Shown here: positions 33,301 to 60,690 of the stretch, piece by piece | Position numbering within the stretch: the first letter of the stretch is position 1 | Layout of the letters: each line of letters opens with the position of its first letter | From: Tubulanus polymorphus | Taxonomy: Eukaryota > Animalia > Nemertea | Length of the DNA stretch: 64,000 bases | Direction: 5' to 3' | Assembly: GCF_964204645.1 (NCBI RefSeq) | Contig: NC_134032.1 | Location: forward strand, 9,536,275 to 9,600,274 | Program-made: the position numbers and the translations under genes | The notes under the pieces: model-generated | Database searches by the model: none | What the model was told of the DNA's origin: nothing | The model's input: the letters and a program-made list of their open reading frames with translations, nothing else

Positions 33301-36300
33301 AGGCGATGGAGCAGATGGTGGAGACAATAATGATGATGATAGTGATAGAGATGGTGATGGGCATGATGGGCGATGGTGGTGATGTATATGATGGTAATGT
33401 TATCCAGTCGTCTAGTAATCTAGTAAATCTAGTCATCTATTCCTCCAGTCGACCAGTATACCATGTCACATGTGTACAGTGCGTCTTCGAATCACGTCAA
33501 AATTAAAAACTGGATCACTACCAACGTAAGGAATATTCCCCAACACTCTTGCGCTATTACCCCATATTCTAAACTTGGGTCAGCTTGAACTCCGATTAGC
33601 GAGCTTCATTGCCCCATCATAAAAGTAAATGTACACTGTCCAGTGGATTATCATTTAACCGATTGAATGGCCTCATATTTCAATTGACCATGAAGAAAGT
33701 TAAGGACGACACATCTGTAGATCTTGTAGAAAAAGACGAAAAGGTGGTTGGTAACGCTGAGTATGGAGCTATAGATACCGTTAACCATTCTATTCATGCC
33801 GATTTCCAGTCTAAAGATACCGGTAACCAGTCTAAAATACAACCAAATAAGGAGCAATCATCATATATATTTTCTTGCCAAATCCGCCGTCGGGCAAACC
33901 CGGTTATCGTTTGTTTCGTTAGTCTTTCGGGGTTATCGTCAATATTTCATCAGGAACTTTACTACCTGTACTGAGTGAACTTCAAGATGGATTCCGCAAT
34001 AACTCGTTGTTTGCAGATCATCATATTGCCGAAGACGTGGCCATCACCAAAACGGTATTCGATTGTGGAATGGTGCTTGGAAGCGTTTTTCTGTGGTGGA
34101 TTGACATTTAAATATGGCAACGTATACCCGTTTTCTTTATTGGGCTCTCTAGGATTTATTCTAAATGCCGGATCGACGATGGTGTCATCTGAATTCAAAA
34201 ATGAAGGTAAAATAGCTATAGCATTGGCTATCGTGTACAGTCTAAAATATGCCGCTCCTGAAATTGGTTACACAAGCCGTTTGTACGAAATCAAACACGT
34301 CGACTATGCCGTATCTTTATTGATTCCATTCTGCGTCTTATTGATACTTATAGTAATATGCGCTTTCTTTAAACTAAATAATAAAGATGTAAAAAACCCG
34401 TACATGTTGAGCTGATCAAATCGATGTTGACTGATGCCCAAACGTTGGTAATATTCGGATTCAAATGTATTTAAACCATAAGTACAAATCTTCATTAAAT
34501 ATATATATGACATTGTTGATTGAGCAGGTCACATCCTGATGTAAAGCACTGGCAAATAAAGGTACACTTATACTGGGGCCGACGGCCATCAACCTTCTAG
34601 GCGCGAAACTATTTGGATTCATAGTGGCCAAAACTAAAAATTATCGTTGGGTTTATCTTATAATTTATTGTCTGATTACGGCAATTTCATTCGTTGCGTA
34701 TCCGTTCGTTGCAAATGTCTGGCAAGCATTAGGTAGCTCTATAATCTGTAACTTGTCGTTTGGGCTTGCGCTAGTTTTAGTTTTTCCTGGTTTTCGGATG
34801 TCGCCGATAAGAAGTTAGACAGTTATTATGAGACGATATACGCAATAGATACCACGGCATCACGCGTGGCATTAGTACTACTAACGTTAGTAGCCGGCGC
34901 CGTAGAACCACGCGATTTTTATAGGTGTCGGTGTTGAATTTCATCTACTTTTCTACGTCTTTTGCTGTTAGAGATATTTGAATTAATCCAGAGAGACCGT
35001 AGACCTCAGCTGAATTGTAGAAGAAATGAACGGTATATAACGAAGTAGAAATAAATTTACATTTGAACTTCAAGCCGATTTTTAATTTTCATTTAACTTT
35101 CATTAGAGTTAACATCAGGGCCCAATTACGCAGTCGTGACCAACTCTTAGTCTAAAAGACGCCAAACGTCGTCTATTCTAATATCGGTCTCGTGTTGTTA
35201 GATTGGCTTACCATCGCACGTGGCTTAAAACCGTTTCAACATGACCCGAGTATAATCATAATCTAACCTTGCTAGACAGATTCTATGGATTTGATACTTC
35301 CTCGGTTTTGACTATGACTCCCCGGATCGAATCAACATTTTCTACGGTCTTGATCGGTAGTCAGTTCGACAGACGATATGTCTTGTCTAACACACGAACA
35401 CTCCCCGATAGAAGCGGTGGGGCACGTGGACTTTTATACCAACATAGACAATACGCAACAGGTAAATATCCAAATTCGCAATTGCGCCCTGTACAAAAGC
35501 TCGAGTTAGGACCAATGTATTGCAATGATTCATCGAATGAACCTACAAATTTGTATTTCTAATTTCACCTCAAACAGATTTGCTGGTTAGGTCACCAGAT
35601 TACGCACAACTCGGCATCAAGGACACTTACTTTTCTGCTAATTGATTTCGATTGATGAGATGGTCTGTTGTTCAAGTCGCTCGAAATAAAGTTCAATGTA
35701 TCTTCTCCATTTAGGAAATCTTTGGTATATCTTTAGTCACGTGAACAGACGCGTGAAAGACTTTTTCAATTCGTTAACGCATTAGCGAGGATTTTTAATG
35801 CGTAGAATCCGCTTTATATGGAATCCACTAATGGATTTTGGTTTTAACTATGCGTGAACCTCGATCGGTAGCCAAATTACCACTGAGTGACACTATACGT
35901 ACACTGGAAATGTAGAAGTAGCTTCTGGAAGATGATTACTGATTGAAACTCGACAATCACAGGTGACGCTGTTACAAGTCACGTGTTTCAATCTCGTACG
36001 TGGCAGAACGTTGTTTGGTACGCGTTCAATGTTTACATCAGTAATAGGGGTAATAGGCTTTCAAGCCAAAGGTCGAACGGTCGAGCTCGTAAAAAATGAA
36101 AAACATAAAAATAATAACAATTTCTACTTGAATTACTCGCGAAACTCATAAAAATGAAAAATAAATTCTCACACGCTCGAATATATTTTTCATTTTTATG
36201 AGTTTCGCGAGTAATTCAAGTAGAAATTGTTATTATTTTCATGTTTTTCATTTTTTACTCACCCGCCCGTTCAACCTTTAGCTTGAAAGCTTATTACCCC

Positions 36301-39300
36301 TATTACTCTTAAAATATTCATATAAATGAATAACATTTAAATTGACAGATTATTCAATATAAAAGTGTAAGCTCTTATAGGATATATATATATATATAAA
36401 TAGTTATTTTATAAATTTATATTCATATGGAAATTGTAGTCTCAGTAATAATTTTGAACCTTTATTATTCTTTAATTTATTCATATATTCATCATGTAAT
36501 TCAGTAGGTATAATTTGATTTTCTTCCAATGATTGTTGCATAGATTTTCTATCTTTGTTATAAAATAAAACTAGAAATCTAATGTTTTCTCTAAAGTCTT
36601 TAACAATTGAATTATATTTTTGATTTAAAACCCATGTTGTTATCCCAAAATGTCACCGGAGAAAGCTAAATAACATAACTCACTTTCTCTAACTTTTGAA
36701 TCATGTAAATTTGCACAATCATCTATAATGAATAATGTATTTGATCCTTTATAAGTATCAATTGCTATTTTTATACAATTATCTAAATTTTCTTTTACTG
36801 TTTTAGGATTTAATATAATAAACTTTTTCATCTTAACTATATCTCTATTATATGTTTTATTCATTTCAGAAGTAGGACAGAATAATATTATATTATCAAA
36901 ATGATTCATATAAATAGTTTCTAACAAATCTAATATGAAATGTGTTTTACCACAATTGGTTACTCCAGTTATTAACATATTATGCGGTTCAAATATAAAT
37001 AAATCTTTATTCATTTATTCTTTTAATTTTACTAGATAAAATCCATTCATTAAATTTATCATCATATCCTTTATATTTCACCAAAGAATACTTTTTTCCT
37101 TTAAGAGTTTTTGTTTTCAATACTTTTTCTATTTTGTATTCTATTTCATCTGGATTTGGTACAAGTGATAATTCTTGTTCATAGAAATAACCTAATATTT
37201 CTTCATCTTTTAAATCTTCTAATTTATAAACAAATGGTTTAGTTAATATTATCTTTTTAATCTTGAATATTTCTTCAGTAAAATTTGGAGTATAACCTTT
37301 ATAAAAGGTTTTTCTATATTTAGATATTCTTACGTGTTGTCTTATTTTAAATTTAGGTTCTCCAAAATCATGTGTAACAAACGCACCATATAAATTATTC
37401 CATACTATTTCTGAATTATCTTCTTTTCTAGCTTGTATAGGTTTCATATTTATAGAACTATGTTTAGAATTATTATAACCTTTCACCAAATCATCTAACA
37501 CATCGATATATTTATATGTTTCATTAGCAGTAAAATATTTCCACATTCTAGTTTTCAATGTTTTATTAAATCTTTCTATAATAGATGCTTTTTTGTCTGA
37601 GTGTGTTGAAAAATATTTTACATCGTTATCAGATAATAGTTTTTTGAAATGTTTGTTATAAAATTCCTTACCTTCATCAAATTGTATCTTATCTGGAATA
37701 GCTTCTTTAAATATAGATTTAAAAGCATTTGTAACTTCTATTCCAGTTTTATTTTTGATTGGAATTGACCATGCGTATCGACTGAATATATCTATAACAT
37801 TCAGTATCCAGAAATATCCTTTGTTGTATTCTTCTAAGTTCTTCATGTCAATTAAATCTGCTTGCCATTGTTGATCGATATATGAAACCATAACTTTTCT
37901 TGTTAAATAAGTTTTATCCATTTTCTTGTGGATTTGATATGTTGGTTGATTTTGTAACCATGATTTCAATTCACTATATTTTATATTTTCATTATCAGAT
38001 TTAATTTTATTCCATAATTCTGAAACGTTAGAATATGATACTTCACTTTCTGGGTTATAATATAAATCTCTTAAATATTGTTCTTTTTTCATCTTATTTT
38101 AATCCATTAATAATAATTTAGATTTAGTTTCAATGACTTTATGATTTGACTTTTTTTCTGGTATGATAGGTTTACTGTCTGTACACGGATAACTAAGTTT
38201 CCGATTATCATTGGAATCATTATTGTTATAATCAGATTTATACTTATATTTATATATTACACCGGATAATATAATAACTGTTACTAATCCAATTGTAATA
38301 TATAATTTATAATTGCTTCCAGCATTAGAAGAATTAGATGGATTATTATTTGAATCAATATCAGATAATTTCTGTGATTCATTTATATCAGTTAATTTCT
38401 TTTTCTTAGCTTTTTTTAATTCTGAAGATCTTTTACCTAATTCTCTTGCCCATTTAATTTGTTTCTCGGATCTAGCCTTTTTCTTAACTCCATCACTCAT
38501 TTATTTTAGTTAATTTTTGTTCTGATTCATTTTCTGTTTCGACGTTTGGTTGTAGTACATCTGTTTCGTTCTTACCTGATTTATATTCCATAGGCTTGAT
38601 GTTCGAAAATGTTATGACGCCAGTAGAAATTAATGTCATAACCGATCCTAATTGAAATGAAGCATATCCAACCCATTTTTGTAATTCAGTCATAACTAAG
38701 TAGTCATTTTTCAAATCACTATATAATTTATTTTCATCATCAATTGGTATTAACTGGTTAAATAACTTAGAATAACATTTGACAATACCATTCGAAATAG
38801 AATCATTTATTTTAGCTAATCTAGCTTCTTCATAAATCTTAAAATATTTTATTACTTTATCTGGTTTCATAGAGTCTAGTTCTTGAAAAGTAATGATTCT
38901 ATTTAAAAACTCCTTAGATTTCCCGCCAGCAATTAATAATTCTAGATGGTGTTTACATGTTAAATAGTATTCATAATCTATATTGTTATTAACTTGAATA
39001 GAATTAGAAACAACTGTATCTTTATTATCACTAATACCCAAATCATCTAATGTCTTTTCAATATCAATACTATTCTTATTAGATTTCTTTGACATTTATA
39101 TTAGAGAAAAAAGCAAAAAAAAATATTATAAGTATTCTTCAAATGATACTAGCTAGTTAAAGGTAAAGAATTTTAGTATTAGTTATTGTTTTTTTAGTAT
39201 TTTTTATTTGTGATATAAAGTATTCTCTTTTGAAAAGAATTGTAAAAGAAAATATTAAAAATTAAAATAGAAATAATGGCTAGTTGAAGTTAATGTTTTT

Positions 39301-42300
39301 TAAATACTTTTTATTTAAAATCTATTTGATATCTCACTACTTTTGTTTATCTATTAGGAGCAGTAGTTATAACTGTCCAGATAAGTCATTTCGGATCCTT
39401 GATATCAAATTCCTCAACGTATTGTTCATTATTTGGATTATTGTTCCATTGATCAATAAATTTCTTTGCCTTTGTTAACTGTTCTAAATATAACTGTAAA
39501 TCTAGTTTATTAGATTTAATTATGTTTTCCTTCTTTTCTAAAGGTCTTAAATTCTTCCAACCCCAAATAAGTTTTTTATTGTATTCATCATTCATGTTAA
39601 ATTTAGATATTGGTAACACGTGATCAATATGGTAATAATCCCCATAATTATCTATATTCATTTTATCATCGAATTGAAATATAATCCATGATTTGAGAAA
39701 TTCATCTGAACAACCCAACACATTAGATAATGTTTCTGAATGTGTTTCTTTGTTGAATAATTGTGTTAATCTAGACCGTAAACATTGTTTCAATCTAAAA
39801 TTAAGATCTGTTTGATATCTTTCTCTCATATATTCCGCCATATAATAATTATAATGTTCTATATTATCTTCTCGATATTGTTTGGTATATAGTTTAGTAC
39901 AAGTTTTACAGCAATATTGAAAACCATCTTTGCTAATCTTACGCTTACTAAATTCTGTTAAAGCTAATTTATCTAATTCACATTTAGAACACTTCTTGTA
40001 GTATATGCTTATAACGCCAGTGTTATTTGTAATATTTATAGTTTGTGGTTGTTCTGGTTCCATTTATTATACATATTTTTTTACTAAATTGATTTTAGAA
40101 GTTATTCATTTATATGTTATTCATGAATACCTATGTATTAGATACCCTATTAGATACCCTAATACCTGATACCCTAATACCTGATACCCTATTAGATACC
40201 TTAAATACTTAAAACCCCCTTTTTTATTTACTATTATTTTATACAAATTTCAACTAATATTATTATTTGAGTTAAATATAATTAATATCTTAATCACTTT
40301 CACTATCAGACCCTAACAATTTATTCAAATGCTCTACCGAATCTACATCAATAGTTGTTTTATTTATGTTTCTATTTCTTTATTTTTATCAGTTCATTCT
40401 TTTCCTAAAGTTCTAATCTTAAAATCTCTTATACTTTTATCATGCGCAATTTTATCAGATGCATTTCTTATACTAATAATCTCTCTAATTGCTTTATCAG
40501 AAAATATATCTAAATCTTCTAATTCTTGATCTGTTGCATCAAGTAATCCATTCGGTAAAAGTTTTTCAATTGGAACTTTATTTGATTTAAGTTTACTATT
40601 TGTGGAAGTTATATTCTGTTCAGAAGTTGTTTCTGTTTCTGATTTCTTTTTGATTATTTCAAATAATTCATTAATTCTTTGTTTAAATACTTCTCTATTT
40701 TTATTCATTTCTGTTTGTGTTAAATATTCTTCTATATCATTAATATTACTTATTCTTCTAATTCTATCTGGATCTAAATCACTCAAAGTTGATTTTGTTA
40801 ATATTTTATTTTTATTATTTTTATGAGTGATTGCAATATAATAATCATCTTTCAAATGATAATAACATTTACCATTATCTAAAAATATTAATTGATCTGC
40901 TAAAGGTCCAACGTCTTCATCATTTATGTTAAGTTTAGATTTTTTAATTAAATCTTCTAATTTAGCTATTTTGTTTTCATTATCTAAATCTTCTTTTACT
41001 AAATATGGGTCTAAATTTTCAGGATCTAATTGTGATTCAGCATTTTTAATATAATCAGGCATATTTAAATTATTATTATATTCTGGGTCATTACCGTCAT
41101 TAAAACTTGTTTCATCAAAATCAGGTGGTTGTTCATCACTTATACCAGGTTCATCTAAAGGATCCAATGGAAAACCTTCTCCACCTTCTACATCCATTTA
41201 CATAATAAAAAAATTAAAATTTAAAATATAATATTCCTCCGATTACAATTCCTATACAAGTTAAAGCTAATTTAGTATTTTCATGGGATTTATTATCATC
41301 ATTAGTTTTAATTATATCATGTTGAATAATATCAGTTTTTATATCTTCTGATGTATTGTAATCTTTTATTTTAGAATCATTATTTAATTTAATATTATTA
41401 GTTTTAGTTTCAGTTGATTGAATATGTTTTTTATTTTTTTCACCTTCCATTAATTTTGGAGCAGTAATTATCTTTTTATTTATATCATTCAATCCAAATG
41501 AATTATTTATTGTTGCAGTTTTAATTAGATTATTATAACCAATTATGTTTCCCATCTTTAATACTAAATCATTAGAAATAATTAATAGATTAGGGCCTAT
41601 ACAATAATTTAATCTAATATGTGATTTATCTAAATAATTTTGATATCTTATAATGTTTTCTGGAATCGATCTATTTTTATCATTATGAATTGAATCTTCA
41701 AATAAAACTTTAAATTGTTTCTGTGTATCAAATGATGTATTCAAATTTCCAATTATCGGTGATCTTGTTTCAACTTGTGATCCTAGAATACAAATCAAAT
41801 AAGTTCTAATAGATTGATTTATTCTTTCTATACCTGATTTAGTAAAACCTTCACTATTTTCTAAAATAAAATAAACACAACCATTATTGTTTTCTTGTTT
41901 TAAATGATCATAAAATTTCGGTAATTTATTGAAATTTAATGTTTCTAAATCCTTTGTTTCTATTTTACCATAACCTAATTTATTATTATAGATATTATAA
42001 AAACTGTTAGATGGTATGGGAAGTGCACAATATTCTGCAACCTTTTTAGGGCAAGGAAGTGATCTTATTGTTCCAATTTTTGTTCTAAAATCAGAATTAT
42101 TTATATCTATATTAAATTCATTGCAAATTTTATAAAACTTAGATAAATTAATATTATTATCTAATTCTTTAAAATATCTTGATCCTGGTAAAGCGCACTC
42201 TAATTCATTTAGTATTATTCTGATTTGAAAGTATGTATGAAATCTAAATAAACTTTGAATTAGTTTATATTTAGAATTATTCAAATGATCATTCCAACTA

Positions 42301-45300
42301 ATTCCGCATCCTGTTTTTGCACAATAAACAGCAAAATCTAATTGGTTCTGCCAATACTTCATATTAGATTTTAATAACCATTGTTTTTCATCTTTCAATT
42401 TTTTTAAATTAATTAAATATACATGAAATATATTTTCCATCTTTGCATTAAAATTATTAGTTTCAGTAACATAAATTTCTAAATTAGTTAATGAATCTAA
42501 AACTTCATTTCTATATGTAATATCTTTATTAAAATCTATTGCTGGAATATTATATTTAATTGATTTATTATATTGGAAAGCTTTTGGAAAACTATCTACC
42601 ATTTATATAATTAAAAAATTAATAATTTATTAATTCTTTTAATAATTTATCTTGTTCTTCAACTGTTATATGGCCATTTAAACTTATTATATAATCTAGT
42701 GTATTCTTTAATTTATTAATTTCTTTTATATTAGTTTTAATTTTTTCTTTATTACTTTTTATATTTAATTTTGAACTTATACCGGTTAAAACACTTGAAC
42801 TTAATCCTAACACACCAATTGATATAGCTAAAGGTGTTAATGGACTGAATATTGCTAGAAATGTTATTACAGAACTAATTGTAACCGAACCACTTATAAT
42901 CAAATAATATATAATTTTACTTTTTAAATATTTTTTTCTTTTTTATCTTTAAGTCACTTTCAAATTCTAATATTTGTTTTTCTAAATATGTTTTTAATTT
43001 AGTTTTATTTATATCATGAGGAATGATATCAATACTATCAACTTTATCTTCCATTTATTTAGCAAAAGAATTACTAATTAGTAAACTTATAAGCAACAAA
43101 TATAACAATAACAGTTCCGCCTAAAATCCATATTATTTCATATTTCTGTTGTTCTTTACTTGGGGTATAATAATCTGATAATTTAGGTTTGTAAAGATGT
43201 AATTTTTCTTTATTTGTTACGGCGTTATATAAACTCATTGCATCATCAACTGATTGAAAATCTCTATGTGAAATCTTCAGATCATATAATTCTTTATTGA
43301 TGTAATCCATATAGTTTTGCCTCTTTTCTCTATATTCTTCTGCAGCTTTATTATATTTCTCTAACGCTAAGTTATGTCTTCTTTGTTCTCCTAATGAACT
43401 ATTTTGATCAATATGTTTAAATAAATATCCACCACCAGTAAATGCCAAAGTGTTAACAATTGCCGATCCTATAATAGTTATAATTGCAGAAGCCATTTAT
43501 TTAGCAAAAAAAATTACGCATTTATATGGGAGGAATATATTTTTGTTTTTCCAAATAATCAATTGTTAAATTAGATAAAGTAACTGCTAATGTTAATTTT
43601 AAGATATCATTTATATCAAATCTATCAACATTAACACTTCCCATTTTAAATACTTTTTTTAATACCATTGAATAACCAACAGTTCCAACTGATAGTAATG
43701 CGCCATTATATAATCCAGTTATTATCCACTTATTATCACTCATTTATTTATCAAAAAAATTACTATCATCAAAATATTTAGTTAACTTATTTATGATTAA
43801 TTCAACATTTATTTCATTACTACTTTTATGATTATCATATATTTCAATTATTATTTTTTTAATATCATCGATGATAAAATCTTCATCTAATTCGTAAAAT
43901 CTTAAAGATTCTCTAATTAAATTAGTAATCTTTTCTACATTTAAAGTTTCTTTATCTATTGTTGTTTCATACTCAAATGTTGTTTCATTAGAAAATGCAA
44001 TATTTTTAATATGTGTAATTACATCATTAACGTTAAATTTCATTTCTTTCTCACGTTTAAAATCAAATCCAAAACATATACTCGGTCCGACAGTTATATT
44101 CATTTATATAGTGAAAAAATTACTCTTTACATCTTATAACTAATTCATATATCACAGGAAAGTTATTCAAATCAATTAAATATCCATTATGATTTCTAAT
44201 TTCTAATTTAAAATTATTAAATTTAGGAATGCATGGTTTAAAATCACATTCTGTTAAATTATAATTTATTTGAGTTCCAAATTGTTTAACATTTTTTAGC
44301 GGTAAAATATTTAGTATACTAGAATTACAAATTGTTTCTTTAGTTGCTTCGAAAGTTTTTGTAGGCTCGATTAAATTGCAATAAATATAAAAGTGTGTAA
44401 AAGGTATTATATTTGAGCTGCCTTCTGCGTTTCCAGTAACTGTAAGCGGTTTAATTCCTAACATTTTAGCCAGTTAACAATTTATGTTGTTCATTAGATA
44501 TCTTTATTCTAATTTTATTAGTACTATCAATTTTATTAAATTTAATTTCAAATACAGAAGTGCCCCCGATTTTCAACCGAGCTCTTCTATTAATTTCCTG
44601 CGCTAATGATTCTAAATTATATAATCCTGGTTTTAAAAATATATGAAACCATTTATCCTTATTTCTCATATAAATCATAAACCCTCTATGTTCAAAAGTT
44701 TTATCCGATACATTGTAAAAAGAATTACATAAACTTATATTAACTAATTTTAAATCTACACAATTCTTAAATTCTCTATCTAATTGAACTAGTAAATTAT
44801 GAGATTTATAATTTGTCAGTTTTCTAGAATCTACAAATATTCTGTATTCTTTTAATTCCACCATTTATTTTACATATTTTCTTATTCGAAATCTATTTCA
44901 TGGTACCCTTTTTCATTCTTACCTTTGTATACGAAATAGAAATCTCCAGAACATAATTCTTCTAAATCTTCACTTGATAATCTATGAAATCTATCAGGTA
45001 AATATGTTCTGAATTTATATGTATTTCCTTTTAATCCTTCATATTCTAAGTGTATAACTAATTTATCTCCATAGTTATTAGTAACTGTATCAATATTTGT
45101 AATTAGATATGTCTTATGGATTGTTAATTCTGTTAACTTTTTGAATTTATAATCTACAGATTTTACATTTGTAGTATCTTTTATTCTATCTAGAAATGAT
45201 TTGTTGTTCTCACTGTGCGCTTGTTTACTCTCCATTTTAATAACATATTTTTTTTCCATAAAATTTGATTAACACGTTAGAATTCTTTTCATTATCTCGT

Positions 45301-48300
45301 TCTCTTTTGTTTCTTCTCTTTTAAATTTTAAGTATTCATCTAAATTACAACCATAAGCAACTGTATGAATTCCATCATCTAATATATATCGTTTATCATC
45401 AAATGGGTTTAGACTTATCTTTTCAATTTCTTCAATAAACATTTCATGATCTTCAGATCTTAAACATCTCATCTTATGTTTTCTAACTTCTTCATTGAAT
45501 ATACAATTTATGTAATCTTTGAAATGAATATTCTTTTCTACTACACTTTTGGTTATTCCTTTTAACTTTTTAGCTTCATGTTCTTTAGTTTTATATGAAT
45601 ACATTTTAGATCTAATACCGATGAATTCAATCATTTCTTCACCACCTAATTCATCTTTGAATTTACCGGGAACTTTTTTATTATCATTGCTAAACAATTC
45701 ATGATTTTTAGGATAATTACTAAAATCAAAATGATGTTTTAATGTTTTTAAATCATCTGTTATGTTATCAGTTTTTATCTTTAATATGTAAGAATCTGTA
45801 TCAAAATATAATATTTCTATATGTTTTTCTCCAAAAAGTGGTTGTAATACATTATAATAGAATTCATACATTAGTAATTTTGATAATTCTAAAACTGAAG
45901 CGCCAACATAGATTGGTTTATTAAATTTTATTGATGTTCTTCTCATTTTAACTGCGGCTAAATTTTCATCAAATATTCTGTTACCAATGAACTTAGGATA
46001 TGATTGTAAATGTCTAATTCTTTTACCATTACTGACTAACTCAATATCATTTCTATTTCTAATATTTTCACAAGTCTTACCATAGAATGCATTATTCATT
46101 AACTTGAAGAAATCTTTCTCGAAATCAGTTTTAGCTTTAGTTCTCTGTTTCGTGTTAAAATCTATATATTTTTCTTAGCACTTAGATTGACTGAATGAAA
46201 TATATCTATGTACTTTTTTTAGAACCATTCCTTGATTCAAATAAAACTTCAACATTCTATAATGTACTACATAATTATATTTATCTTCTTGAGTTACCAT
46301 TAACTTTTCTGTATGAATATGATTTTCGGGTTTAATTCTTTTTTGATAACTTGATAATTCTTCATGAGTTACAGTTTTATGTTCGGGACAGTAAGCTAGA
46401 TTTCTAGATTTAAATTTAATATGTTCAGGATATTCTAAATCTACAACAAAGAAGTAACCAGTATCTGAATCATCTGCAATATCTAGGATTCTTTTCTTCC
46501 AATCAAATTTATCATTATTTTCATTCTGTAAAACTTCAGTTAATTCAAATACTCCATAAGGTTGTGGTTCCATCATTGCCCAACCATACAAATTATTTGC
46601 ATCTATATATAATAACTTATATCCGGGGTTATCATTTACATTGAAATATCTATCACCTAATACACCTGAAACACCTCCTCTTATAGATTTTTCAAATAAT
46701 AATAATTGATCTATATTTGTTAACAAATCCATTTTTATATCTGTAAATTTTAATCCACAATCCCATGTTAATCCTGGTGATGAATAACAATGACAAGGAT
46801 CAATATTGAAATATTTTAGGTTTACATCTCTAAACCTTTCGAATATATCGGTTAATAATAATACATCTGATTTTAAACATAAATCTACTAATTGCCCATG
46901 ATTTTCTATTCTGAAATGATTCCAAATATTCAATGTTCTATTATAGACTTCATCTTTAACATATTCATTTTTTAATTCATCATAGAATTGTTCTTTTAAT
47001 AATTCAGTTATGTTAAAATCATTATGATTTTTATAGAAAGAATATGGAATTGCTCCTTTATATCTCATTAATTTAAAATCATCATTATTTGGGTAATATT
47101 CTTTTAATATCTTTAATTCATCATCAACTAATGATTTTGATAAGTTATCTAATGAACTATCTAAAAATCTATATGAATCTATAAATCTTAAACACCCAAA
47201 TTGGAATGATATATAATTCTCAGATGTTTTAGCTAACATTCTAAATTTATAAGTTGGTATTTTATCTTTTGATCTATTTGAATTTAATATTTCTATTTCA
47301 TTATTGATTTCTTCTATTTTATGGCATAACTGTTAGATAAATAAATGTGCATCATATCCTGATAGATTATGAAATATAACTGGTACAAAGTTAATTTTCT
47401 TAGCTTGTAAGTTACAATTCTCATGTGCAGCGCCTCTAAACTTTCCATTCAAATGATCATGGTCTCTTACTTTTTTATCTTTATAATTAAATATCTTTTC
47501 ACAATAATAACATTTACCTGCAAACGCAAATTCTTCTTTATCTTCTTCTGTCATTATAATTTCTATATTTGTATTCAATAATTTACTAAAACTTATTTCA
47601 TATTCAATTAATAAGTCACAAAAATGATTGATAACATTTTCATTTCTATAATGATAATATTCACTTTCAATTAGTTCTGGATAATCAGATTTTATATATA
47701 ACCCGAAAGCTGCGGCTGATTGATGAATCTTTTTAATAGTATTTGTTTTTGGTGGTTCTTCTGAAAAATCATTTTCATTAGAATTCAATTTTTTTCTTTT
47801 ATAATATATTTCTTTTCTATCTTGATCAGTTAATTCTTTATTCAATGATTCAAAATCTCCATATATGACAAATGGTACTTTATTTTTGTAATCATATTTT
47901 TTGAATTCTAATATTTTATCTTTTTCATTTGGTAAAACTAATTTACAATAATCAGGATTTTCACATAATTGTTTATGATTTAATAATGTACTTTCATTAC
48001 TAAATCTATGTGAACATTTTCTACAAAGATATATTTTATGGTGATCATTTTCTGATTTAAAAAATAAATCGATTTGTTTAATCCACATATAATGATTCTC
48101 ATAATATAGTATATCTATAACATCGTTTGAATCATAATCTTTTGATAGATATAAAGGTTCTAATGTATAATGTTTTATATTGTTACCTTTTGTATTTGGT
48201 AATTTGATTAAATCAAATACATTTATCTTTATATTATTATCTCTTTCTATTTTTGGGATGTCTTTAATTATAACAGGATACTTATCTATCTTATAATTAT

Positions 48301-51300
48301 TTTCAAATGGTTTATAATGAGTTAATCTAAAACTATGTTGTTTATAATCTTCAACTGGGTGTAAAAAACTTTTTATAGCCCATAGAAAACATTTATTATC
48401 AAAATTTTGTAAATTTATTACAGCATTAGTTTTAAATGGTAGTTTAATATAACTTGATGCTTCAATATCAGGTTCTTTATAATATGATAAATTGTTTTCA
48501 TCTATTGGTTTCGATTTAGTTAACTTATTATATTTTGTGTTATAAACATGTAAAGTCATAAATATTATTTCATCAAATATTAAACCAGATCCTTCAAAAT
48601 ATTTCTCTTCTATTTTAGTTTTTACTTCATTATAACATTTATCTAATTTATCATCTATATGTTGTTTTGAAATAATATGTTGTGAATGAGAATTTATATT
48701 ATATATTGGTTTATCTTCAGATTTTATAAACTTTACTTTAGAAGATATACTAATTTTAGGATATTCAACATCTGTAATTATTTTTATTATTTCTTTCATA
48801 TTTTCTAAATGTTTTTTATTTTCTTCTAATGTTTTTCCTTTATGAAATTTAAACTCGATAGCTGCTGGACCAATATCACTTTTAAATGCTTCGGTTATCT
48901 CTATATCTTTTTTATTATCTAATGAATTAATATAATTTCTTACATCTTCCATGTATGGTCTTTTATTGTTTAATTTATTTTTTATGCTTTTAATTGTCTT
49001 CTGTTTCTTATCGTTATCATTATCAAAATAATCTTCACCTAAAATATCATTATTCTTATTTCTAATATGACTTATAGATTTTAAATGTTCTTTATAATAT
49101 CTTTTATCACTGAATGATTGATTACATGTATCACATTTGTATGTTTCTTTTTCATTCTTTAATTCATCTAATTTAGTTTCTAATATATCATCTTCATATT
49201 CTAGTTTCAATTTATTCTCTAAATGTGTTTTAGTTTTATTGTGTCTTGCTTTTTGGGATTTATCTATATTGATATTACATGTTGGGCAGTAGTACTTATT
49301 TGCTTCCATTTTAATACTAAATTTTTTATTAAAATTGATTTTAGAAGTTCAATGATTTAAATGTAATTCATTTATATGAATATTTTAAGAGTAATAGGGG
49401 TAATAGGCTTTCAAGCTAAAGGTTGAACGGGCGGGTGAGTAAAAAATGAAAAACATGAAAATAATAACAATTTCTACTTGAATTACTCGCGAAACTCATA
49501 AAAATGAAAAATAAATTCGAGCGTGTGAGAATTCATTTTTTTCATTTGGCTCGAATACTGTACTCAGCTCGTTGTTTTAATGATCACAAACAGCGCTATA
49601 AATTTTTTCATATATATCGCGAATTTGAAGTCATTTCGCGACGAACTGGTGCGCATTGTGAAACTATGATTATATTCTAACGATGTATTAGGATGTTTAA
49701 AACCTCAAAACCACGTGCACAGTATTTGATTACCGAAACGACGGTATCAATGACTGATCCAAGAGGTCAAGCGTATAGCATAGAAATAAAAATGAAAACA
49801 AGCCCAGAATAACCAAAGGCACAAAACCCGTAACATGGTTCCGAAATCTATGCCGCACATTGCTACGCGTAATGGGCAACTGCCCATTCGTTTTCGCGTG
49901 CGTCACATGTGAAGAACGTAAGGAGCATTTTGTCGGTTAATCCACGAGCAATCATCTCAAGATGATCGTTCGTATAAGGGTTAATATACAGTCAACCTCC
50001 AAAACACCACCGTACTCTAAATACTGTGTAAATCCCAGACCAGCAATGTGAGCAGTTCAACTGTGAAAAAATCCGATAACATTTACTCGAATAAAAAATT
50101 GTCTAATTTCATAGTTACATAATAGCTTTACTGACCACTGGGATGTGCGTTGGATGATATTGGTGGTAAAAGTTACTATACATGATGAGCGACTTGTTAT
50201 CGAGGGCACTAACAACTACTAAATGATTAAGAGAGATGGTTCGAAATGAATAATACTCCTTCCCGTTTAAAAAGTAAATCGATTTCGCTAGAAATAGGGA
50301 TTTTAATGCATAAACTCTGCGTTTACGAAACTGGTTTGGTTACCAATTAGATTCGCTGTTAAGAAGTGCTAGCTAATGGGTAATCGGAGAAGGTTCCAAA
50401 AAAATCACACTGGAATAGAAAGCATTAGCCTCTGGAAGATGACAGTTACTGGAACAAACTCGACGGACGATGTCACAAGTCACGAGTTTCAATCTCGTAC
50501 GTGGCAGAACGTCGTTTGGTACGCGTTCAATGTTTACATCTATTTCTGGATGGTGACCGGTGTTACCGGGGGTTTACTGTCCATAGTCGTCTTGTTTCGT
50601 CTGCGTCGCACGTTAGACGCGTGCACCTTCCAGTATCTGGTACCGCTATGTTTTTCGGATTCTATTTTCGTTATCACTTATTCGCTGAAGTCTCTGGAAC
50701 GAATTCGCATCGTGACCGGCAATTCTCATGATCAGTACGTATTCTACGCCGTTAATGAAGTCACGTGCAAACTGGGTATGGTGCTCATCAATTTCGGAAT
50801 CAAAAGCTCGTCGTGGATTCTGTTGTGTTTTGCCGTGGAACGCAGTTTAGCGGTACTGATTCCTTTGCGCATCAGGAGATTGGTGACCCGGGTTCGACGC
50901 CGGAATCTAATTATATCGGTTCTTCTTTACTACGCCGTAACGGAAGGCGCTCAGGGAATCACCTTCCATGTTAAAACCCTCGGACATGGCTTAAAAAACT
51001 GCCAAACAAACACCGTTTCAGAAATTATGACACGAATAATTATAATCTATTCCTTCTTAACCATGACTATAATTCCTTGGATTAGTTTGATATTTTCGAC
51101 GGTTGTAATTAGTATTCAGTTCACCAGACGAGATGTCCAGTTCAAAAACACTAACATTTCCGAACAGGAACGCAGATGCGTACGAAATCTAATTTGCATA
51201 ATCGTTGCCTTTTTCGTATTGAACGCACCGAATACTGTACTCAACTTGTTGGACTATACAAGTGAGAAACTGGGGCATTTACCAAGACAAATAGAACATT

Positions 51301-54300
51301 TGATGCACCTTATCGGGGGTGTTTTAATGATCACAAACAGCGCTATAAATTTTTTCATATATATCGCGAATTTGAAGTCATTTCGCGACGAACTGGTGCG
51401 CATTGTGAAACTATGATTATATTCTAACGATGTATTAAGATGTTTAAAACCTCAAAACCACGTGCACAGTATTTGATTACCGAAACGACGGTATCAATGA
51501 CTGATCCAAGAGGTCAAGCGTATAGCATAGAAATAAAAATGAAAACAAGCCCAGAATAACCAAAGGCACAAAACCCGTAACAAGGTTCCGAAATCTATGC
51601 CGCACATTGCTACGCGTAATGGGCAACTGCCCATTCGTTTTCGCGTGCGTCACATGTGAAGAACGTTAAGGAGCATTTTGTCGGTTAATCCACGAGCAAT
51701 CATCTCAAGATGATCGTTCGTATAAGGGTTAATATACAGTCAACCTCCAAAACACCACCGTACTCTAAATACTGTGTAAATCCCAGACCAGCAATGTGAG
51801 CAGTTCAACCGTGAAAAAATCCGATAACATTTACTCGAATAAAATATTGTCTAATTTCATAGTTACATAATAGCTTTACTGACCACTGGGATGTGCGTTG
51901 GATGATATTGGTGGTAAAAGTTACTATACATGATGAGCGACTTGTTATCGAGGGCACTAACTATTCTATAAAATGATTAAGAGAGATGGTTCGAAATGAA
52001 TAATACTCCTTCCCGTTTAAAGTAAATCGATTTCGCTAGAAATAGGGATTTTAATGCATAAACTCTGCGTTTACGAAACTGGTTTGGTTACCAATTAGAT
52101 TCGCTGTTAAGAAGTGCTAGCTAATGGGTAATCGGAGAAGGTTCCAAAAAAATCACACTGGAATAGAAAGCATTAGCCTCTGGAACATGACAGTTACTGG
52201 AACAAACTCGACGGACGATGTCACAAGTCACGTGTTTCAATCTCGTACGTGGCAGAACGTCGTTTGGTACGCGTTCAATGTTTACATCTATTTCTGGATG
52301 GTGACTGGCGTTGCGGGGGGTTTACTGTCCATAGTCGTCTTGTTCCGTCTGCGTTACACGTTAGACGCGTGCACCTTCCAGTATCTGGTACCGCTATGTT
52401 TTTGCGATTCGATTTTCGTCATCACTTTTTCTTTGAAGTCTCTGGAACGAATTCACATCGTGACCGGCAATTCTCGTGGTCAGTACGTATTCTACGCCGT
52501 TAATGAAGTCACGTGCAAACTGGGTATGGCGCTGATAAATTTCGGAATCAAAAGCTCTTCGTGGATTCTGTTGTGTTTTGCCGTAGAGCGCAGTTTAGCG
52601 GTGCTGATTCCTTTGCACATCGGGAGGCTGGTGACCCGGGCTCGACGCCGAAATCTTGTTATATCGGTTCTTTTTTACTACGCTCTAACGGAAGGCGCGC
52701 AGGGTTACACCAACCACGTTAAGACCATCGGACATGGCTTAAAAAACTGCCAAATAAACACCGTTTCAGAAATCATGACACGAATAATCTTAATCTATTC
52801 CTTCCTAACCATGACTATACTTCCTTGGATTGGTTTGATATTTTCGACGGTTGTGATCAGTATTCAGTTCACCAGACGAGATGTCCAGTTCAAAAACACG
52901 AACATTTCTGATCAGGAACGCAGATGCGTACGCAATCTGATTTGCATAATCGTTGCCTTTTTCGTATTGAATGCACCGAATACTGTACATATCTTGGTCG
53001 CCTATACAAGTGACAAACTGAAGCACCTGCTACCTCAAATAAGACATTTAATAACCCTTATCGGGACCGTTTTAATGATCACAAATAGTGCTGTAAATTT
53101 TTTCATATACATCGTGAATTTGAAGTCATTTCGAGAAGAACTGGTGCGCGTAGTGAAACTACGACGAAAGTGAATCGGTTAGACCAGGTTTTTAGTCGAC
53201 GTCGTCCTCGTCATAAAAAATATGTTGAAAAATAGACGTTTTTGCATTTTGATTCAACTCCCCTAAATTCATATTTGATCGTGGTAAAATGACACAATAC
53301 TTGATATTGATAGAAATGACGCTACATCTCGTGAAAACGTGTCTGATATTTAGTGTCTAGTGTCTAGTGTTTGATGTTGCCACTGAAAAGTGAAAGTGGA
53401 ATTACGCGCACTCACCGGGAATCGAACCCGGGTCTTGCACATAGAAAGCAAGCGGGCTAACTAGAAGACCGAAAGAGCTAGTGCACCTGGCCAGTGGTAC
53501 AGCTTGTCCAAAACCCTTCATCCAGCCCTGGAGGTGGTTGTATCGACAGCGATCTCCGTCGCTCTACGATCTTATCGTACCCATCTGTGATAAGATCAGG
53601 CGCTATAAGGTTCTCGGTGAATTTGGCCCAAGCTATGATTACTGAAAAATAATTATATTCTTGTTTTTCGTTGAATGAACGCAGGAATTACGAAGAGCTT
53701 CGTTGCGAGGGTCTCGACAAATTGATCAAGAGCCGTCTGCGAGCAGGGGAGAAAATCGCTTTTACCGTACGGCAAAATGATGGAACGTGTGATCGTGTTA
53801 CACGATTTAAACGTCACGGCTCCGTTCATTGAAGACGTCGCCATAGCTGACGATTCACTTTGAAGTGAAAATGAAAACAAACCCAAAAATAACCTAAGGC
53901 AAAAAACCGTATCAAGGTTTCGAGTTCTACGCCGCACATACGACTGTCCCTTCGTTTTCGCGTGTGCCACATGTGAAGAACGTTTAGGAGCATTTCTAAT
54001 CATCGGTTGATACGCAGTCAACCTGCGACACACCATCGTACTCTCAATACTGCCGAAATCCTACATCATCAATGTGGACAGTGTATCGGGGTTAGGCTGT
54101 GATGTAATCCGATAACTTTTACCCAAATAGAAAATTGTCTAATTTCATAATTACATCACAGATTTGCTGGCCACTTGGAAGTCCGTAGGATGAGGAGGGT
54201 GGTAAAATATAGCAGGGTTTAGTAGAGTTTTACGTCCCCAACTGCAAATAACAGTTAGTATATCCCAATAAGTGGGTCTTAAGAGACGGCCAGGGCCTTT

Positions 54301-57300
54301 TTTATAGGTTGTTATCACTACTCACAACCTGACTAAGTTAGCAGAGCTTAGTCCATGTATGTGCACGGACAACTAACACCAGAGTGGGTTTCGGACCAGG
54401 GATCTCTTGGTTCCCAGTCCTCGACTGGGCACTTACCATTCTACAAATGATTAAGAGAGATAGTCTGGTTCGAAATGAATAATAATCTATGTATCTCCCC
54501 ACTAAAGTGTAAATCTATTTCGCTAGAAATGCTTTTTCGCTTTTAAATACATAAACTCTGCGTTTTCGAAACTGGTTTGGTTACCAATTAGATTCGCCGT
54601 TAAGAAGTGCTAGCTCAAGGGTAATGGAAGAAGGTTTTAAAACATTGACGTAATTAATAGTGACGTACACTGGAATAGTTAGCATTAGCCTCAGGAAGAT
54701 GACAGTTACTCGAACAAACTCGACGGACGATGTCACAAGTTACGTGTTTCAATCTCGTACGTGGCAGAACGGTGTTTGGTACGCGTTCAATGTTTACATC
54801 TATTTCTGGATGGTGACCGGTGTTACCGGGGGTTTACTGTCCATAGTCGTCTTGTTTCGTCTGCGTCGCACGTTAGACGCGTGCACCTTCCAGTATCTGG
54901 TACCGCTATGTTTTTCGGATTCTATTTTCGTTATGACTTATTCGCTGAAGTCTCTGGAACGAATTCGCATCGTGACCGGCAATTCTCATGATCAGTACGT
55001 ATTCTACGCCGTTAATGAAGTCACGTGCAAACTGGGTATGGTGCTCATCAATTTCGGAATCAAAAGCTCGTCGTGGATTCTGTTGTGTTTTGCCGTGGAA
55101 CGCAGTTTAGCGGTACTGATTCCTTTGCGCATCAGGAGATTGGTGACCCGGGTTCGACGCCGGAATCTAATTATATCGGTTCTTCTTTACTACGCCGTAA
55201 CGGAAGGCGCTCAGGGAATCACCTTCCATGTTAAAACCCTCGGACATGGCTTAAAAAACTGCCAAACAAACACCGTTTCAGAAATTATGACACGAATAAT
55301 TATAATCTATTCCTTCTTAACCATGACTATAATTCCTTGGATTGGTTTGATATTTTCGACGGTTGTAATAAGTATTCAGTTCACAAAACGAGATGTCCAG
55401 TTCAAAAACACTAACATTTCCGAACAGGAACGCAGATGCGTACGAAATCTAATTTGCATAATCGTTGCCTTTTTCGTATTGAACGCGCCGAATACTGTAC
55501 TCAGCTTGGTTAACTATACAAGTGACAAACTGAAGCACCTGCTCCCTCAAATAAAGCATTTAATAAACCTTATCGGGGCCGTTTTTATGATCACAAATAG
55601 TGCTGTAAACTTTTTCATATATATCGTGAATTTGAAATCCTTTCGAGACGATTTGGTGCGCGTAGTGAAACTACGACGAAAGTGAATCGGTTAGACCAGG
55701 ATTTGAGACGACGTCGTCCTCGTCATAAAAAAGATGTTGAAAATTAGAGGTTTTTGCATTTTGATTCAACTCCCCTAAATTCATATTTGATCGTGGTAAA
55801 ATGATACAATTCTTGATATTGATAGAAATGACGCTACATCTCGTGAACAAGTGTCTGATATTTAGTGTCTAGTGTCTAGTGTCTGATGTTGTCACTGGGT
55901 GGGTGGTCTAGGAGTCTCGCGTTATCACGCATGCATGGCCGCTTCGTGAATATGGCAATGGCTCTTATTAATGATTGAGAAAAGTGACAGTGGAATTACT
56001 CGCACTCACCGGGAATCGAACCCGGGTCTTGCACGTAGAAAGCAAGTGGGCTAACCAGAAGGCCGAAAGAGCTAGTGCACTTGGCTAGTGGTGCAGCTTA
56101 TCCATAACCTTCACCTAGTCCTGGAAGTGGTTGCATCCACAGTGATCTCCGTTGCTCTACGGTTTAAGCGTACCCAGCTGTGGTAAGATCAGGCACTAAG
56201 GTTCTCGGTGAAATTGGCCCAAGCTGTGATTACTGAAAAAAATTCTATTCTTGTTCTTCGTTGAATGAACGCAGGAATTACGAAGAGCTTCGTTGCGAGG
56301 GTCTCGACGAATTGATCAAGAGCCGTCTGCGAGCAGGGGAGAAAATCGCCTTACCTTACGGCAAAATGATGGAACATCTGATCATGTTACACGATTCAAA
56401 CGTCACGGCTCCGTTTATCGAAGACTTGGTCGCCATAGCTGACGATTCACTTCGAAATATCAGGCATGTCTGAAAAAATAAATCGCAAAATCAGATTACA
56501 AGGTTGTTCTAAAACATCGAAATTTTCAACGTGTATCTAAAATTTGAAATCATTTTTTAAATCTTTGTCTTGTAAAATGTAAAATAGAAATATGAAATCG
56601 CTGAATGAAGTGATTAGATTCAAAATCTAAGAATTCTGTTTTCTAATGATAGCTGAATCGTAGAATATAACTTCTAACATATTAGCTCAACTTTCTCCAA
56701 TAATACTCTCGGTTTTGTCATTAGTTTAAATCTTGATTCGCCGGTGGTCGTGTTGGGAGACGCCTCCGCATCGATGGAAGTGGCCATCAGAACAGCGACG
56801 ATCATTTCGAGCCTTTTGACCGCCGTGTGCTCGGCGAAACTTGTGTTCTTCAACACAGTCAACATGGAGCCTCCTTTCCTACCGAAAACCATCGCCGAGG
56901 TTAGTGCGTTACCGCCTAGATACGGGATCTGGACGAATAGCTATATCTTTAGATCCTATAAGTTAAGCTCTCTTCGTATGCGAAGTGAATCAAGTCTCGG
57001 TACCTATCCCCTCAGAAAACCCGCTGATAGACCCTACAGACAATGTGCTGTTTGTACCCACCTTTCAGCCGATCTGTTGCATGAACCAATTTCAGACGCT
57101 CGCGGTTGTCTATCGAACACCCGTCAGAATATCTACGGTACAGTAAAACCCCTCGCACCGCCGTCTTATACACCCGTTCAGACAATCTAGGGCCGGTTGC
57201 TCAAAAGTTGGTTAAAGTTCCTAACCAACTTTTGACCAACCTGGCCCCTACTGTCTTAAACCCTTAAATCTATCGCCATCCTTACAAAAAATGATTGTCC

Positions 57301-58533: not shown

Positions 58534-58777
58534 ATCTGCCGCAGCCTATATTGAGCCGGTCCGAACTATCTATGCAGGATGTAAAACACTGAACTCTAAG
58601 ATGCTTATGGTCTGTTTTAGCGATGTATGCGCCTAATCCCCCAAATATTACTTGACTGATCCAAATCCTTTCAAATTCGGGGCTTGATGCAACAGAAAAA
58701 TGGATATGTATCAAAAGATTCGTGTACGTTTGTACCAACTGTTATGAAAAATTCGCTCAATGCTTCGACCATCTGTA

Positions 58778-60539
58778 ATAAACCATTTTACAGTTGCTAG
58801 CCGCCATTTTGTTAGGGTACTTTTGTCCCGTATTGTTGGGTCATTTTTTTCTCTTTTTTAAAACTATCCGTGATGTGTGTTGTATCATATTTCATCTGTC
58901 CATGGATGGATTTTGACAACTTCAGCAACATTCAAACCGCATAAATCTCTAGTTTTCAGTTATGTAAAAATCATTTCTCAAATTTACAACAATGCGACAT
59001 GAGAGCGATATAAAAATCGGTGGTCAGTTTTTGCCGTGCGCATAGAAATCCAGGGTACTGAACTTTGAAGTTCGTTATTTTCAGAAATAATTTTCTAAAA
59101 AATCCAAACATTTCAAGCACTGTGCGCATAAACACCCCCTTTCAGGTGAATTTTGAAATTTTAAGATATCTTGCCTAGTTTTTTTCCTATGGCACTTTAA
59201 CTGCAGCGCGTGTATTGTCATTCCGAGATTTGGCGCTGTTTTCTTTGCGTGTATTTCAGTATATGGGTGTTATTTCTTCATTTTCACTACACTTGTCTCT
59301 ACGGAAAATGGTTTTAATTGTTGGTACGAGTATCAGGTTTAAATATTACGGCATTAATACTGTATTCCGTTCTCCGGCGCTAGTTCGTAATGGCTGTAAT
59401 GGTAGCCGCTTTTACGGCAGGCAGAGGCTTACGTACATGCACCCAAGAAAACCCAAAATATCACTCTTTTGTTGTAAATGCAATCCACACACTTCTTGCG
59501 TTTTTGTGATGGTAGATGTCACTTTTTACTTTTTATCACGTGCGTATGACATTCGAACTTGATACTTGATATTTCACCACCAAAACAAGAAAACGTTTTC
59601 CTATATTTTCTTCCCAATCTAATCAATCTTGAGTGTACTCATAGAAAGTATTCATAGAAAGTAGCTGAATATTTGCCCCACCCCATTTGTCCAGCTTTTT
59701 GACCACTTCTCCATCCATCTAATTTCAGTAGATTTTTATGTAAATTTATTGATAGACTACTGATTTAAATGGTCATCATACTCGATTTTGAGTGTTATAT
59801 TTCTTTTCTTCTTCCATCTCAATATAGGCCCATATATTCTCTTCCCGCGCGCAACTTCGAATGCGTGATCAAAATGCCGCTCAGTCTCGCTGCTAAAACT
59901 GGTCAGAAAAATCCCTTAAACCCCAACATCTCTAATGTCTTCGACCTATTATATTGCATAAACGACGTGATATTTAAACCTGATACTCGTACCAACAATT
60001 AAAACCATTTTCCGTAGAGACAAGTGTAGTTAAAATGAAGAAATAACACCCATATACTGAAATACACGCAATGAAAACAGCGCCGAATCTCGGAATGACA
60101 ATACACGCGCTGCAGTTAAAGAGCCATAGGAAAAAAACTAGGCAAGATATCTTAAAATTTCAAAGTTCACCTGAAAGGGGGCGTTTATGCGCACAGTTCT
60201 TGAAATGTTTGGATTTTTTAGAAAATTATTTCTGAAAAAAACGAACTTCAAAGTTCAGTACCCTGGATTTCTATGCGCACGGCAAAAACTGACCACCGAT
60301 TTTTATATCGCTCTCATGTCGCATTGTTGCAAATTTGAGAAATGATTTTTACATAACTGAAAACTAGAGATTCACGCGGTTTGAATGTTGCTGAAGTTGT
60401 CAAAATCCATCCATGGACAGATGAAATATGATACAATACACATCACGGATAGTTTTTAAAAAAGAGAAAAAAATGACCCAACAATACGGGGCAAAAGTAC
60501 CCTAACAAAATGGCGGCTAGCAACTGTAAAATGGTTTAT
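58778..60539. mobile_element. Non-autonomous DNA transposon with ~570-bp near-perfect TIRs
   Basis: TA|ATAAACCATTTTACAGTTGCTAGCCGCC... (to ~59349) versus ~59965...GGCGGCTAGCAACTGTAAAATGGTTTAT|TA; non-coding ~615-bp spacer; probable TA TSD. Confidence 0.9.
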
Positions 60540-60690
60540 TATCAGGTACCATTTCCAACACCTTTAACTTGTATTACGCCCTAATTTCAGAGCTCTAATC
60601 TAAAGTTTATTGGAAATAAAGTTTGTAAAAGTAAAGTTATGTAAAGTTTAATTTCACTAAGAGAGATTGATCGAGTAAATGTCGACCCCA

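Follow-up and report, generated by a model that had tools for sequence, protein, structure and literature searches.

The window analysed here is a stretch of 64,000 nucleotides (nt) from the nemertean Tubulanus polymorphus (assembly GCF_964204645.1, contig NC_134032.1, positions 9,536,275 to 9,600,274), and the subject of this study is a 13.5-kb Polinton-type element that lies in it as a low-GC island bounded by inverted repeats, with every gene on the minus strand. An original prediction, made from the letters alone, had recognised in this region an ATPase gene, a penton-like gene and at least six genes for hydrophobic or transmembrane (TM) proteins, without a double-jelly-roll major capsid protein (MCP) or an adenain protease, and the open reading frames (ORFs) that it named were all recovered at their positions. 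The features of the element are as follows (protein lengths in amino acids, aa).

36040–49547, minus strand: integrated Polinton-type element; GC 21–26% inside against 34–46% in host bins
36040–36342, no strand: left terminal repeat; its part 36040–36307 a 268-nt near-perfect palindrome, first letters AG
36407–37014, minus strand: A32-type packaging ATPase (PF04665, Pox_A32, E 4.7e-7), frameshift near 36645
37007–38092, minus strand: rve integrase with chromodomain, 361 aa, open frame (PF00665, E 1.2e-9)
38099–38500, minus strand: 133 aa, basic N-terminus and one TM segment (hydrophobicity; positional counterparts in relatives)
38493–39095, minus strand: 200 aa, conserved, helical; C-terminal segment moderately hydrophobic
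39386–40063, minus strand: HNH/endonuclease VII-like protein, 225 aa (downstream of the MCP gene in relative L009)
40370–40396, no strand: deletion breakpoint region; premature stop, end of homology; MCP gene gone entirely, as is the C-terminal, hydrophobic half of the gene upstream
40394–41197, minus strand: 267 aa, truncated N-terminal half of a coiled-coil membrane protein of ~450–485 aa in relatives
41214–42602, minus strand: 462 aa, tail-anchored protein; confident predicted, mainly helical fold, no structural match
42619–43054, minus strand: ~145 aa, two-TM gene, frameshifted; intact homologs weakly SLATT-like; accessory, 3 of 80 loci
43074–43496, minus strand: 140 aa, conserved; hydrophobic N- and C-terminal segments flank a helical core
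43522–43743, minus strand: 73 aa, conserved small hydrophobic/amphipathic protein
43744–44103, minus strand: 119 aa, soluble accessory protein, 3 of 80 loci
44120–44864, minus strand: penton-like minor capsid gene in two ORFs (44466–44864 and 44120–44464)
45269–49309, minus strand: protein-primed PolB-type polymerase (pPolB) gene in three ORFs (47333–49309, 46175–47239 and 45269–46099)
49355–49547, no strand: right terminal repeat, 97% complementary to 36152–36342; outer ~112 nt gone

Metagenome contigs were scanned with a 13-sequence alignment of the 462-aa protein, which matched at least 600 stretches, 546 of them confirmed; the counts given for relatives below rest on the best 80 of these 546 loci, numbered with the prefix L. 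Scans of IMG/VR with the 462-aa alignment, an MCP alignment and one ATPase as queries returned no relative.

The element is marked as a Polinton (Maverick, in the broad sense) by its rve integrase, its A32-type ATPase, its terminal inverted repeats (193 nt, 96.9% identity) and its pPolB, which matches a PF03175-bearing protein of L024 (E 9e-24) and of L009 (E 7e-98) and whose N-terminal ORF carries C2H2 fingers and endonuclease VII (Pfam). L014 (9967–13404) and L022 (9276–12458) have a replicase with a superfamily 1 (SF1) helicase domain and no similarity to the window pPolB, next to the same morphogenetic block. The ATPase of the original prediction is confirmed by its Pox_A32 match, and the penton-like gene is split in the window and a single gene of 254–264 aa in relatives. 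Its residue pattern fits, by eye, the PX alignment of PMC4028283 (Fig. S2), its only Pfam match is DUF5901 at E 0.004, and its profile found nothing under E 0.05 among the sequences of solved structures. In many relatives (L011, L013, L014, L019 and L021; for example L013 1211–3370) there is a pair of penton-like genes, and a fibre-like gene (weak tail-fibre matches) often stands between the two; the sub-lineage of the window has a single penton-like gene. Since the pPolB, penton, ATPase and ~145-aa genes are split, the element is a decayed copy, and a second deletion at its right end brings the lesions, apart from the one at the capsid gene, to at least five.

Loss of the major capsid gene

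No trace of an MCP gene was found across the whole window, the best E being 0.70 in tblastn searches with family MCPs and 0.84 for a profile against the six frames, in agreement with the original prediction. Clustering of ORFs revealed a family of 415–444 aa in 33 of the 80 loci and none in the window; it was found in 24 of the 26 loci whose sequence extends 2 kb or more past the 462-aa gene. A model of the L002 member (predicted local distance difference test, pLDDT, 75.7; predicted template modelling score, pTM, 0.80) matched the MCPs of PBCV-1 (E 3e-16) and grouper iridovirus (SGIV; E 7e-16), with virophage MCPs ranking lower, indicating that the relatives' protein is, by its predicted fold, a double-jelly-roll MCP.

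L002 is the closest long relative (69–80% nucleotide identity over most genes, with the 462-aa protein 68% identical), and its gene order is penton, 119, 73, 140, 145, 462-aa homolog, 485-aa gene, MCP, the MCP gene directly following a full-length ~485-aa gene. The window keeps this order until halfway through the 485-aa gene, where it passes to the HNH-like gene; in L009, the MCP gene is followed by HNH, matching what is expected across the window junction. Full-length members of the family align with the 267-aa ORF only over their N-terminal half; of the C-terminal half nothing remains, and homology to the full-length protein of L001 stops at 40370.

A DNA read run of the same species (by species label), of which about 12% was read, was examined over window positions 39400–41200. 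From the window sequence 104 reads depart at 40370, and at the premature stop 134 of 162 reads differ from the window and 28 share its form; read depth is ~210–250 at 40437–40619 compared with 33–75 at 40132–40375. Because these 28 reads carry the window form at the stop, the MCP-less form is not unique to the assembly, and the MCP-less arrangement may constitute a small sub-family. In the same run, most reads also differ from the window at 40247 (67 of 71) and 40345 (29 of 33), and 549 reads depart at 40091; short repeats of the ATACCC type occupy 40132–40375, between the junction and the HNH gene.

We conclude that the MCP gene was almost certainly lost from the window copy by a deletion at ~40370. 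The interval 40064–40393, proposed earlier as the candidate scar, is right at its upper end, where the break lies, but not in its lower part, where 40055–40124 is an upstream stretch like that of pPolB. This 72-nt stretch, located upstream of the HNH gene, is 82% alike to 49301–49371 upstream of pPolB, and the similarity raises the possibility of a shared early promoter.

Loss of the MCP by a deletion near 40.1–40.4 kb was the second alternative of the original prediction, and for the MCP it is correct. Full-length relatives carry the MCP at the junction (24 of 26 loci) but no protease. No protease family was matched in the 16 element ORFs scanned with Pfam, no peptidase family among 103 ORFs of at least 110 aa from seven long loci, and no spare ORF of such a length was present inside the morphogenetic blocks of these seven; PLA2, gasdermin, OTU and Cupiennin, features of the Adintoviridae type, had no Pfam match in the ORFs scanned either. 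Table S1 of PMC4028283 scores Polinton-3_NV, N1_NV, N1A_NV and N1B_NV as ATPase-positive and protease-negative, and the available text of PMC4642659 describes Polinton-like viruses (PLVs) without a maturation protease. Adenain is thus absent, in the sense of not being detectable, across the whole lineage and was not lost by the window copy alone. Since Polinton-3_NV-type MCPs, the Table S1 scores and the absence of a protease from PLVs have been published, both the lineage and its lack of adenain were already known.

A conserved block of membrane proteins

Hydrophobicity (Kyte–Doolittle, 19-residue window) is clear for four of the six genes that had been called hydrophobic or TM, with maxima of 1.95 for the 133-aa protein, 1.71 for the 462-aa protein (residues 444–462), 2.15 and 1.94 for the ~145-aa protein and 1.87 and 2.0 for the 140-aa protein. 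It is marginal for the other two, of 200 aa (1.34) and 73 aa (1.16), whose families contain long uncharged runs (medians of 26 and 22 residues, compared with 11–17 in controls). The 462-aa protein had been regarded as the sole large membrane protein, which proved incorrect, as a seventh, larger one had been missed: the 267-aa ORF is the N-terminal half of a 420–500 aa protein built of an acidic N-terminus, a coiled coil and three hydrophobic or amphipathic helices. C-terminal hydrophobic helices are found in 21 of 21 full-length homologs of this ~485-aa protein and are deleted in the window copy. Starts of the N-myristoylation type were practically missing, with 1/57, 0/21, 0/14, 1/18 and 0/12 sequences in five sets.

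In 11 long loci, three of which end early or are degraded, the 462-, ~485- and 200-aa families occur without exception, the 140-aa family in 10 and the 73-aa family in eight. A 133-aa-like gene, encoding a basic N-terminus and a hydrophobic segment and recognised by position and build rather than as one sequence cluster, follows the 200-aa gene in loci that extend there. Gene order and strand vary among relatives while the membrane block persists. The ratio of nonsynonymous to synonymous substitution rates (dN/dS) is 0.07–0.30 for the 73-, 140-, 200-, 462- and 145-aa genes and 0.24 for the integrase, values that are a clear sign of purifying selection on the 73-, 140-, 200- and 462-aa genes. 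Pairwise divergence of the membrane genes tracks that of the MCP (Spearman 0.84–0.87), the corresponding values being 0.91 for the ATPase and 0.64 for the integrase (six loci only), and trees of the MCP and the 462-aa protein from 17 loci have their main supported groups in common, with long-branch warnings. Since kin share trees anyway, these shared trees speak for a co-inherited module and not for binding. The MCP, the penton-like gene, the ATPase and the membrane genes together make up a single conserved module in which no protease was detected, and the membrane block is, judged by its conservation, real and old, with five genes plus the truncated one retained across the family.

This conserved module is widespread and apparently undescribed: no description of the membrane block was found in the literature searched, a scope outside which lay subscription papers, Repbase entries and the preprint and PMC11131425 supplements, where these families might figure as unnamed groups. 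In the available text of PMC11131425, where unknown proteins are reported as frequent in coral polintoviruses, the words 'membrane' and 'transmembrane' occur 0 times, and that of PMC4028283 lists only MCP, penton, ATPase and protease for Polinton-3_NV/N1_NV, leaving the membrane block unmentioned.

The 462-aa protein, with 2,879 clusters at 50% identity (E up to 0.001), is tail-anchored without a signal peptide, as had been predicted; of 49 complete homologs, 44 end in a hydrophobic tail and 0 have a hydrophobic segment at the N-terminus, while the controls score 1 of 96. In a confident model obtained from 145 sequences (pLDDT 83.3, pTM 0.80), a domain of ~380 residues, mostly helical, is joined by a disordered linker to a helix at the C-terminus. 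Foldseek found no match in PDB and BFVD at E 0.001 or better. The modelled protein is not a double jelly roll and was rejected as an MCP on its predicted fold. A comparison in VIA gave a best Z of 4.8, under the noise level of 7–8, and ESM Atlas yielded no usable match for the protein or one homolog; failure to find a structural match is no proof of a new fold, particularly for a protein of 462 aa. Profiles of the MCP, the 462-, ~485-, 140- and 200-aa proteins and the penton found nothing under E 0.03 among sequences of solved structures. Among the chains listed by VIA, all below the same noise level, are two adenovirus capsid chains, 8roq_N of 244 residues (Z 4.4, rmsd 3.1, 55 aligned) and 9lr9_K, of unverified identity (Z 4.0, rmsd 3.2, 62 aligned), and both alignments cover residues 263–353 of the model. 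The traced length of adenovirus IIIa in the available text of PMC12517501 is 244 residues, the same as 8roq_N, and the possible likeness of the modelled protein to IIIa is a lead only. A complex prediction for the L002 MCP, penton and 462-aa homolog, run without alignments, yielded no usable answer (score 0.00).

A role of the 462-aa protein as a protease is unsupported: Q87, C94, C99 and H122 are conserved, but H122 lies within a long helix, some members lack C99 and none of the folds listed was that of a protease. Within the gene, the in-frame stretch 41951–42067 cannot be aligned with the closest relatives, is ~19 residues longer and was modelled with low confidence (residues ~180–201); its source was looked for and not found.

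Lineage, particle and competing readings

The MCP of Polinton-3_NV from Nematostella vectensis, as printed in PMC4028283, shares long motifs with the relatives' MCP, such as 'ETLY..IP.L' and 'RDSEKF.NP.I', and the same source gives for Polinton-3_NV and N1/N1A/N1B_NV what is also seen in the present lineage, an ATPase, no protease and a length of 14–17 kb. Compared by eye, these sequences point to membership of the Polinton-3_NV/N1_NV lineage, although the window copy differs from Polinton-3_NV-type elements in having no MCP. According to the available text of PMC4028283 and PMC11296320, the Polinton-3_NV MCP groups with the MCP of PgVV, and in that of Bellas and Sommaruga (2026) ATPases from Octocorallia, Hydrozoa and Bivalvia lie near Aquintoviruses; one MCP homolog found here carries the name Mytilus edulis. 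PgVV/Gezel-type PLVs (Aquintoviricetes) likewise have no maturation protease, the PgVV kinship of the MCP being taken from the literature only, whereas the present lineage is set apart from them by a pPolB or helicase-type replicase together with an rve integrase, by its occurrence in animal genomes and by the membrane block. Adintoviruses, or group 1–2 Maverick-Polintons, as characterised in the available text of PMC8502044, have in common with it pPolB, rve integrase, A32 ATPase, penton, MCP, terminal repeats and an animal host, as well as membrane-active accessory genes, but they were found and defined through adenain, which this lineage lacks. As a deletion derivative of a known Polinton lineage that has no protease, the window copy is nothing out of the ordinary; it cannot make particles and would at most be copied in trans by intact copies of the same genome.

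Polintons have been placed between the membrane-containing tectiviruses and the membrane-containing giant viruses, and those of animals have been described as adenovirus-like and protease-matured. In tectiviruses and the large membrane-containing jelly-roll viruses, the capsid forms on a membrane and the ATPase fills it. The lineage shares its MCP fold (best matches PBCV-1 and SGIV) and A32-type ATPase with the tectivirus PRD1, PBCV-1, iridoviruses and African swine fever virus, and it shares several small TM proteins without signal peptides with internal-membrane jelly-roll viruses and poxvirus crescents. However, no homology to any of these viruses was detected for any membrane protein, and the near lack of N-myristoylation-type starts is a further difference; the likeness appears to be functional. 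We lean, slightly beyond even chances, towards reading the element as a decayed copy of the protease-less Polinton-3_NV/N1_NV lineage whose MCP was deleted and whose membrane block is a morphogenetic module, likely of a lipid-containing icosahedral virion; that the virion of the lineage contains a lipid membrane we judge to be about evenly balanced, or marginally better. The membrane-containing particle of the original prediction therefore survives for the intact lineage and not for the window copy, while its proposal of a new, non-jelly-roll structural module or a helper-packaged particle is not supported, as the relatives carry a double-jelly-roll MCP.

Because they have no signal peptides, the membrane proteins would be inserted post-translationally into a host membrane, with their bulk toward the cytosol or nucleoplasm. 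Assembly of the MCP and penton would take place on the host membrane carrying these viral proteins. The 462-aa protein would be its anchored cement or scaffold, the basic 133-aa protein would link DNA to the membrane, and the proteins of 73, 140 and 200 aa would give the membrane its shape. As in tectiviruses, the particle would be filled by the A32-type ATPase with no proteolytic maturation, and the ~485-aa coiled-coil protein with its three hydrophobic helices might serve membrane penetration at entry.

Several points weigh against this proposal. The lipid virion would be read from genes and not from particles, a proteome or lipids. Sequence searches linked none of the membrane proteins to a known viral one, and the Foldseek and VIA results for the 462-aa model belong here as well. 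For the 133-aa and 267/485-aa genes, which are poorly aligned and of low complexity, dN/dS is ~0.7–1.0. Co-inheritance with the MCP demonstrates a module and not a location in the virion, related elements sharing trees regardless, and the Polinton-3_NV assignment was made by eye against a printed alignment. L016 and L042 are long enough and yet have no MCP ORF. Finally, Pfam flagged the MCP in just two of the seven long loci, all of them incomplete elements, and because it is so insensitive here a very divergent protease could escape detection.

The same topology would serve equally well if the capsid were protein-only at assembly and the membrane block acted in egress or in an outer envelope, its tail-anchored proteins, placed in the plasma membrane or the inner nuclear membrane, budding the capsids out; analogies are the nuclear egress complex of herpesviruses and the envelopes of baculoviruses. 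An integrating element must operate in the nucleus, no signal-peptide glycoprotein is present, and the ~485-aa coiled-coil/hydrophobic protein could be a fusogen. A budded envelope usually needs a luminal attachment protein, however, and none was seen, many relatives carrying two penton-like genes and a fibre-like gene instead; moreover, nothing among egress or envelope proteins was listed as a match by sequence or by fold, a result that falls short of exclusion. An egress role seems unlikely, at perhaps one chance in a handful.

Marginally less probable again is that the membrane proteins are non-structural pore formers or host modulators, active in lysis, abortive defence against a co-infecting virus or anti-apoptosis, next to an ordinary jelly-roll capsid. 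A weak likeness to SLATT is seen for the ~145-aa gene (E ~2e-5 to 4e-5 for L003 and L002, far below the cut-off), holin-like and SLATT proteins are reported in these viruses generally in the available text of bioRxiv 10.64898/2026.10.13.758929, and the membrane-active accessory genes of adintoviruses (PMC8502044) fit the same idea. The SLATT-like gene is nevertheless confined to 3 of 80 loci, and the other genes keep their places among the MCP, penton and ATPase genes and diverge in step with the MCP, also in loci whose replicase is of the SF1-helicase type instead (L014, L022). Very improbable is a particle that natively has no capsid or is packaged by a helper, with the membrane block or the 462-aa protein standing in for the jelly-roll MCP. 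In its favour, the window lacks an MCP, 28 of 162 same-species reads share its form at the stop, and L016 and L042 show no MCP ORF in their available sequence; against it, 24 of 26 informative relatives have a true double-jelly-roll MCP beside the same block (by predicted fold, which refutes such a particle for the lineage), the junction halves a conserved gene and the window copy bears its other lesions.

If the membrane block is a morphogenetic module, as we prefer to read it, its tie to a PgVV-type capsid would give a minimal eukaryotic membrane-containing example. With the cluster count given above for the 462-aa protein, the family is large, it falls outside the adenain-seeded survey described in the available text of PMC8502044, and the genes listed here are specific markers for natural particles; the window copy itself is an ordinary decayed insertion. 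More tentatively, and with somewhat less than an even chance, the family may represent a very large animal-associated lineage of 15-kb integrating viruses with tectivirus-like lipid virions, no maturation protease and six undescribed membrane proteins, among them a new-fold tail-anchored scaffold and a coiled-coil entry protein, whose MCP-less derivatives, such as the window copy, would spread within the genome with the help of intact copies.

Ends, insertion site and neighbouring repeats

The flanks of the element match a tandem array of intronless rhodopsin-type G-protein-coupled receptor (GPCR) genes with a period of ~1.75 kb, as would fit an animal host. The element sits inside one copy of this array, represented by the flank pieces 35870–36039 and 49571–49669, and intact copies lie nearby at 50376–51416, 52124–53173 and 54699–55685. 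Compared with the next GPCR copy, the left flank ends at a point corresponding to 50540 and the right flank restarts at one corresponding to 51318, indicating that the second deletion removed 777 bp of the host GPCR gene along with the outer ~112 nt of the right repeat. A target-site duplication is missing because the right end and these 777 bp of host gene are deleted.

The 268-nt palindrome in the left terminal repeat has a z of −28 against 100 shuffles. Local palindromes of at least 60 nt were found in 6 of the 80 relative loci (L013 1–206, L061 3588–3771, L072 153–252, L020 3666–3764, L040 144–266 and L002 9082–9359), several of them directly outside the outermost penton-like gene, and these palindromes may point to hairpin ends or self-primed replication in the lineage. 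In L002 (9082–10981), the palindrome lies between the ATPase and 200-aa genes, which suggests an end-to-end junction or tandem copies; a deoxynucleoside kinase gene (E 1.7e-31) comes next.

Elsewhere in the window, a 1.7-kb unit at 58776–60541 carries 522-nt inverted repeats at 95% and is probably a DNA transposon of the non-autonomous kind; tandem units of 74 nt, with inverted repeats nested in them, are dispersed over 11600–15600, and 25017–25238 is a 41-nt minisatellite.

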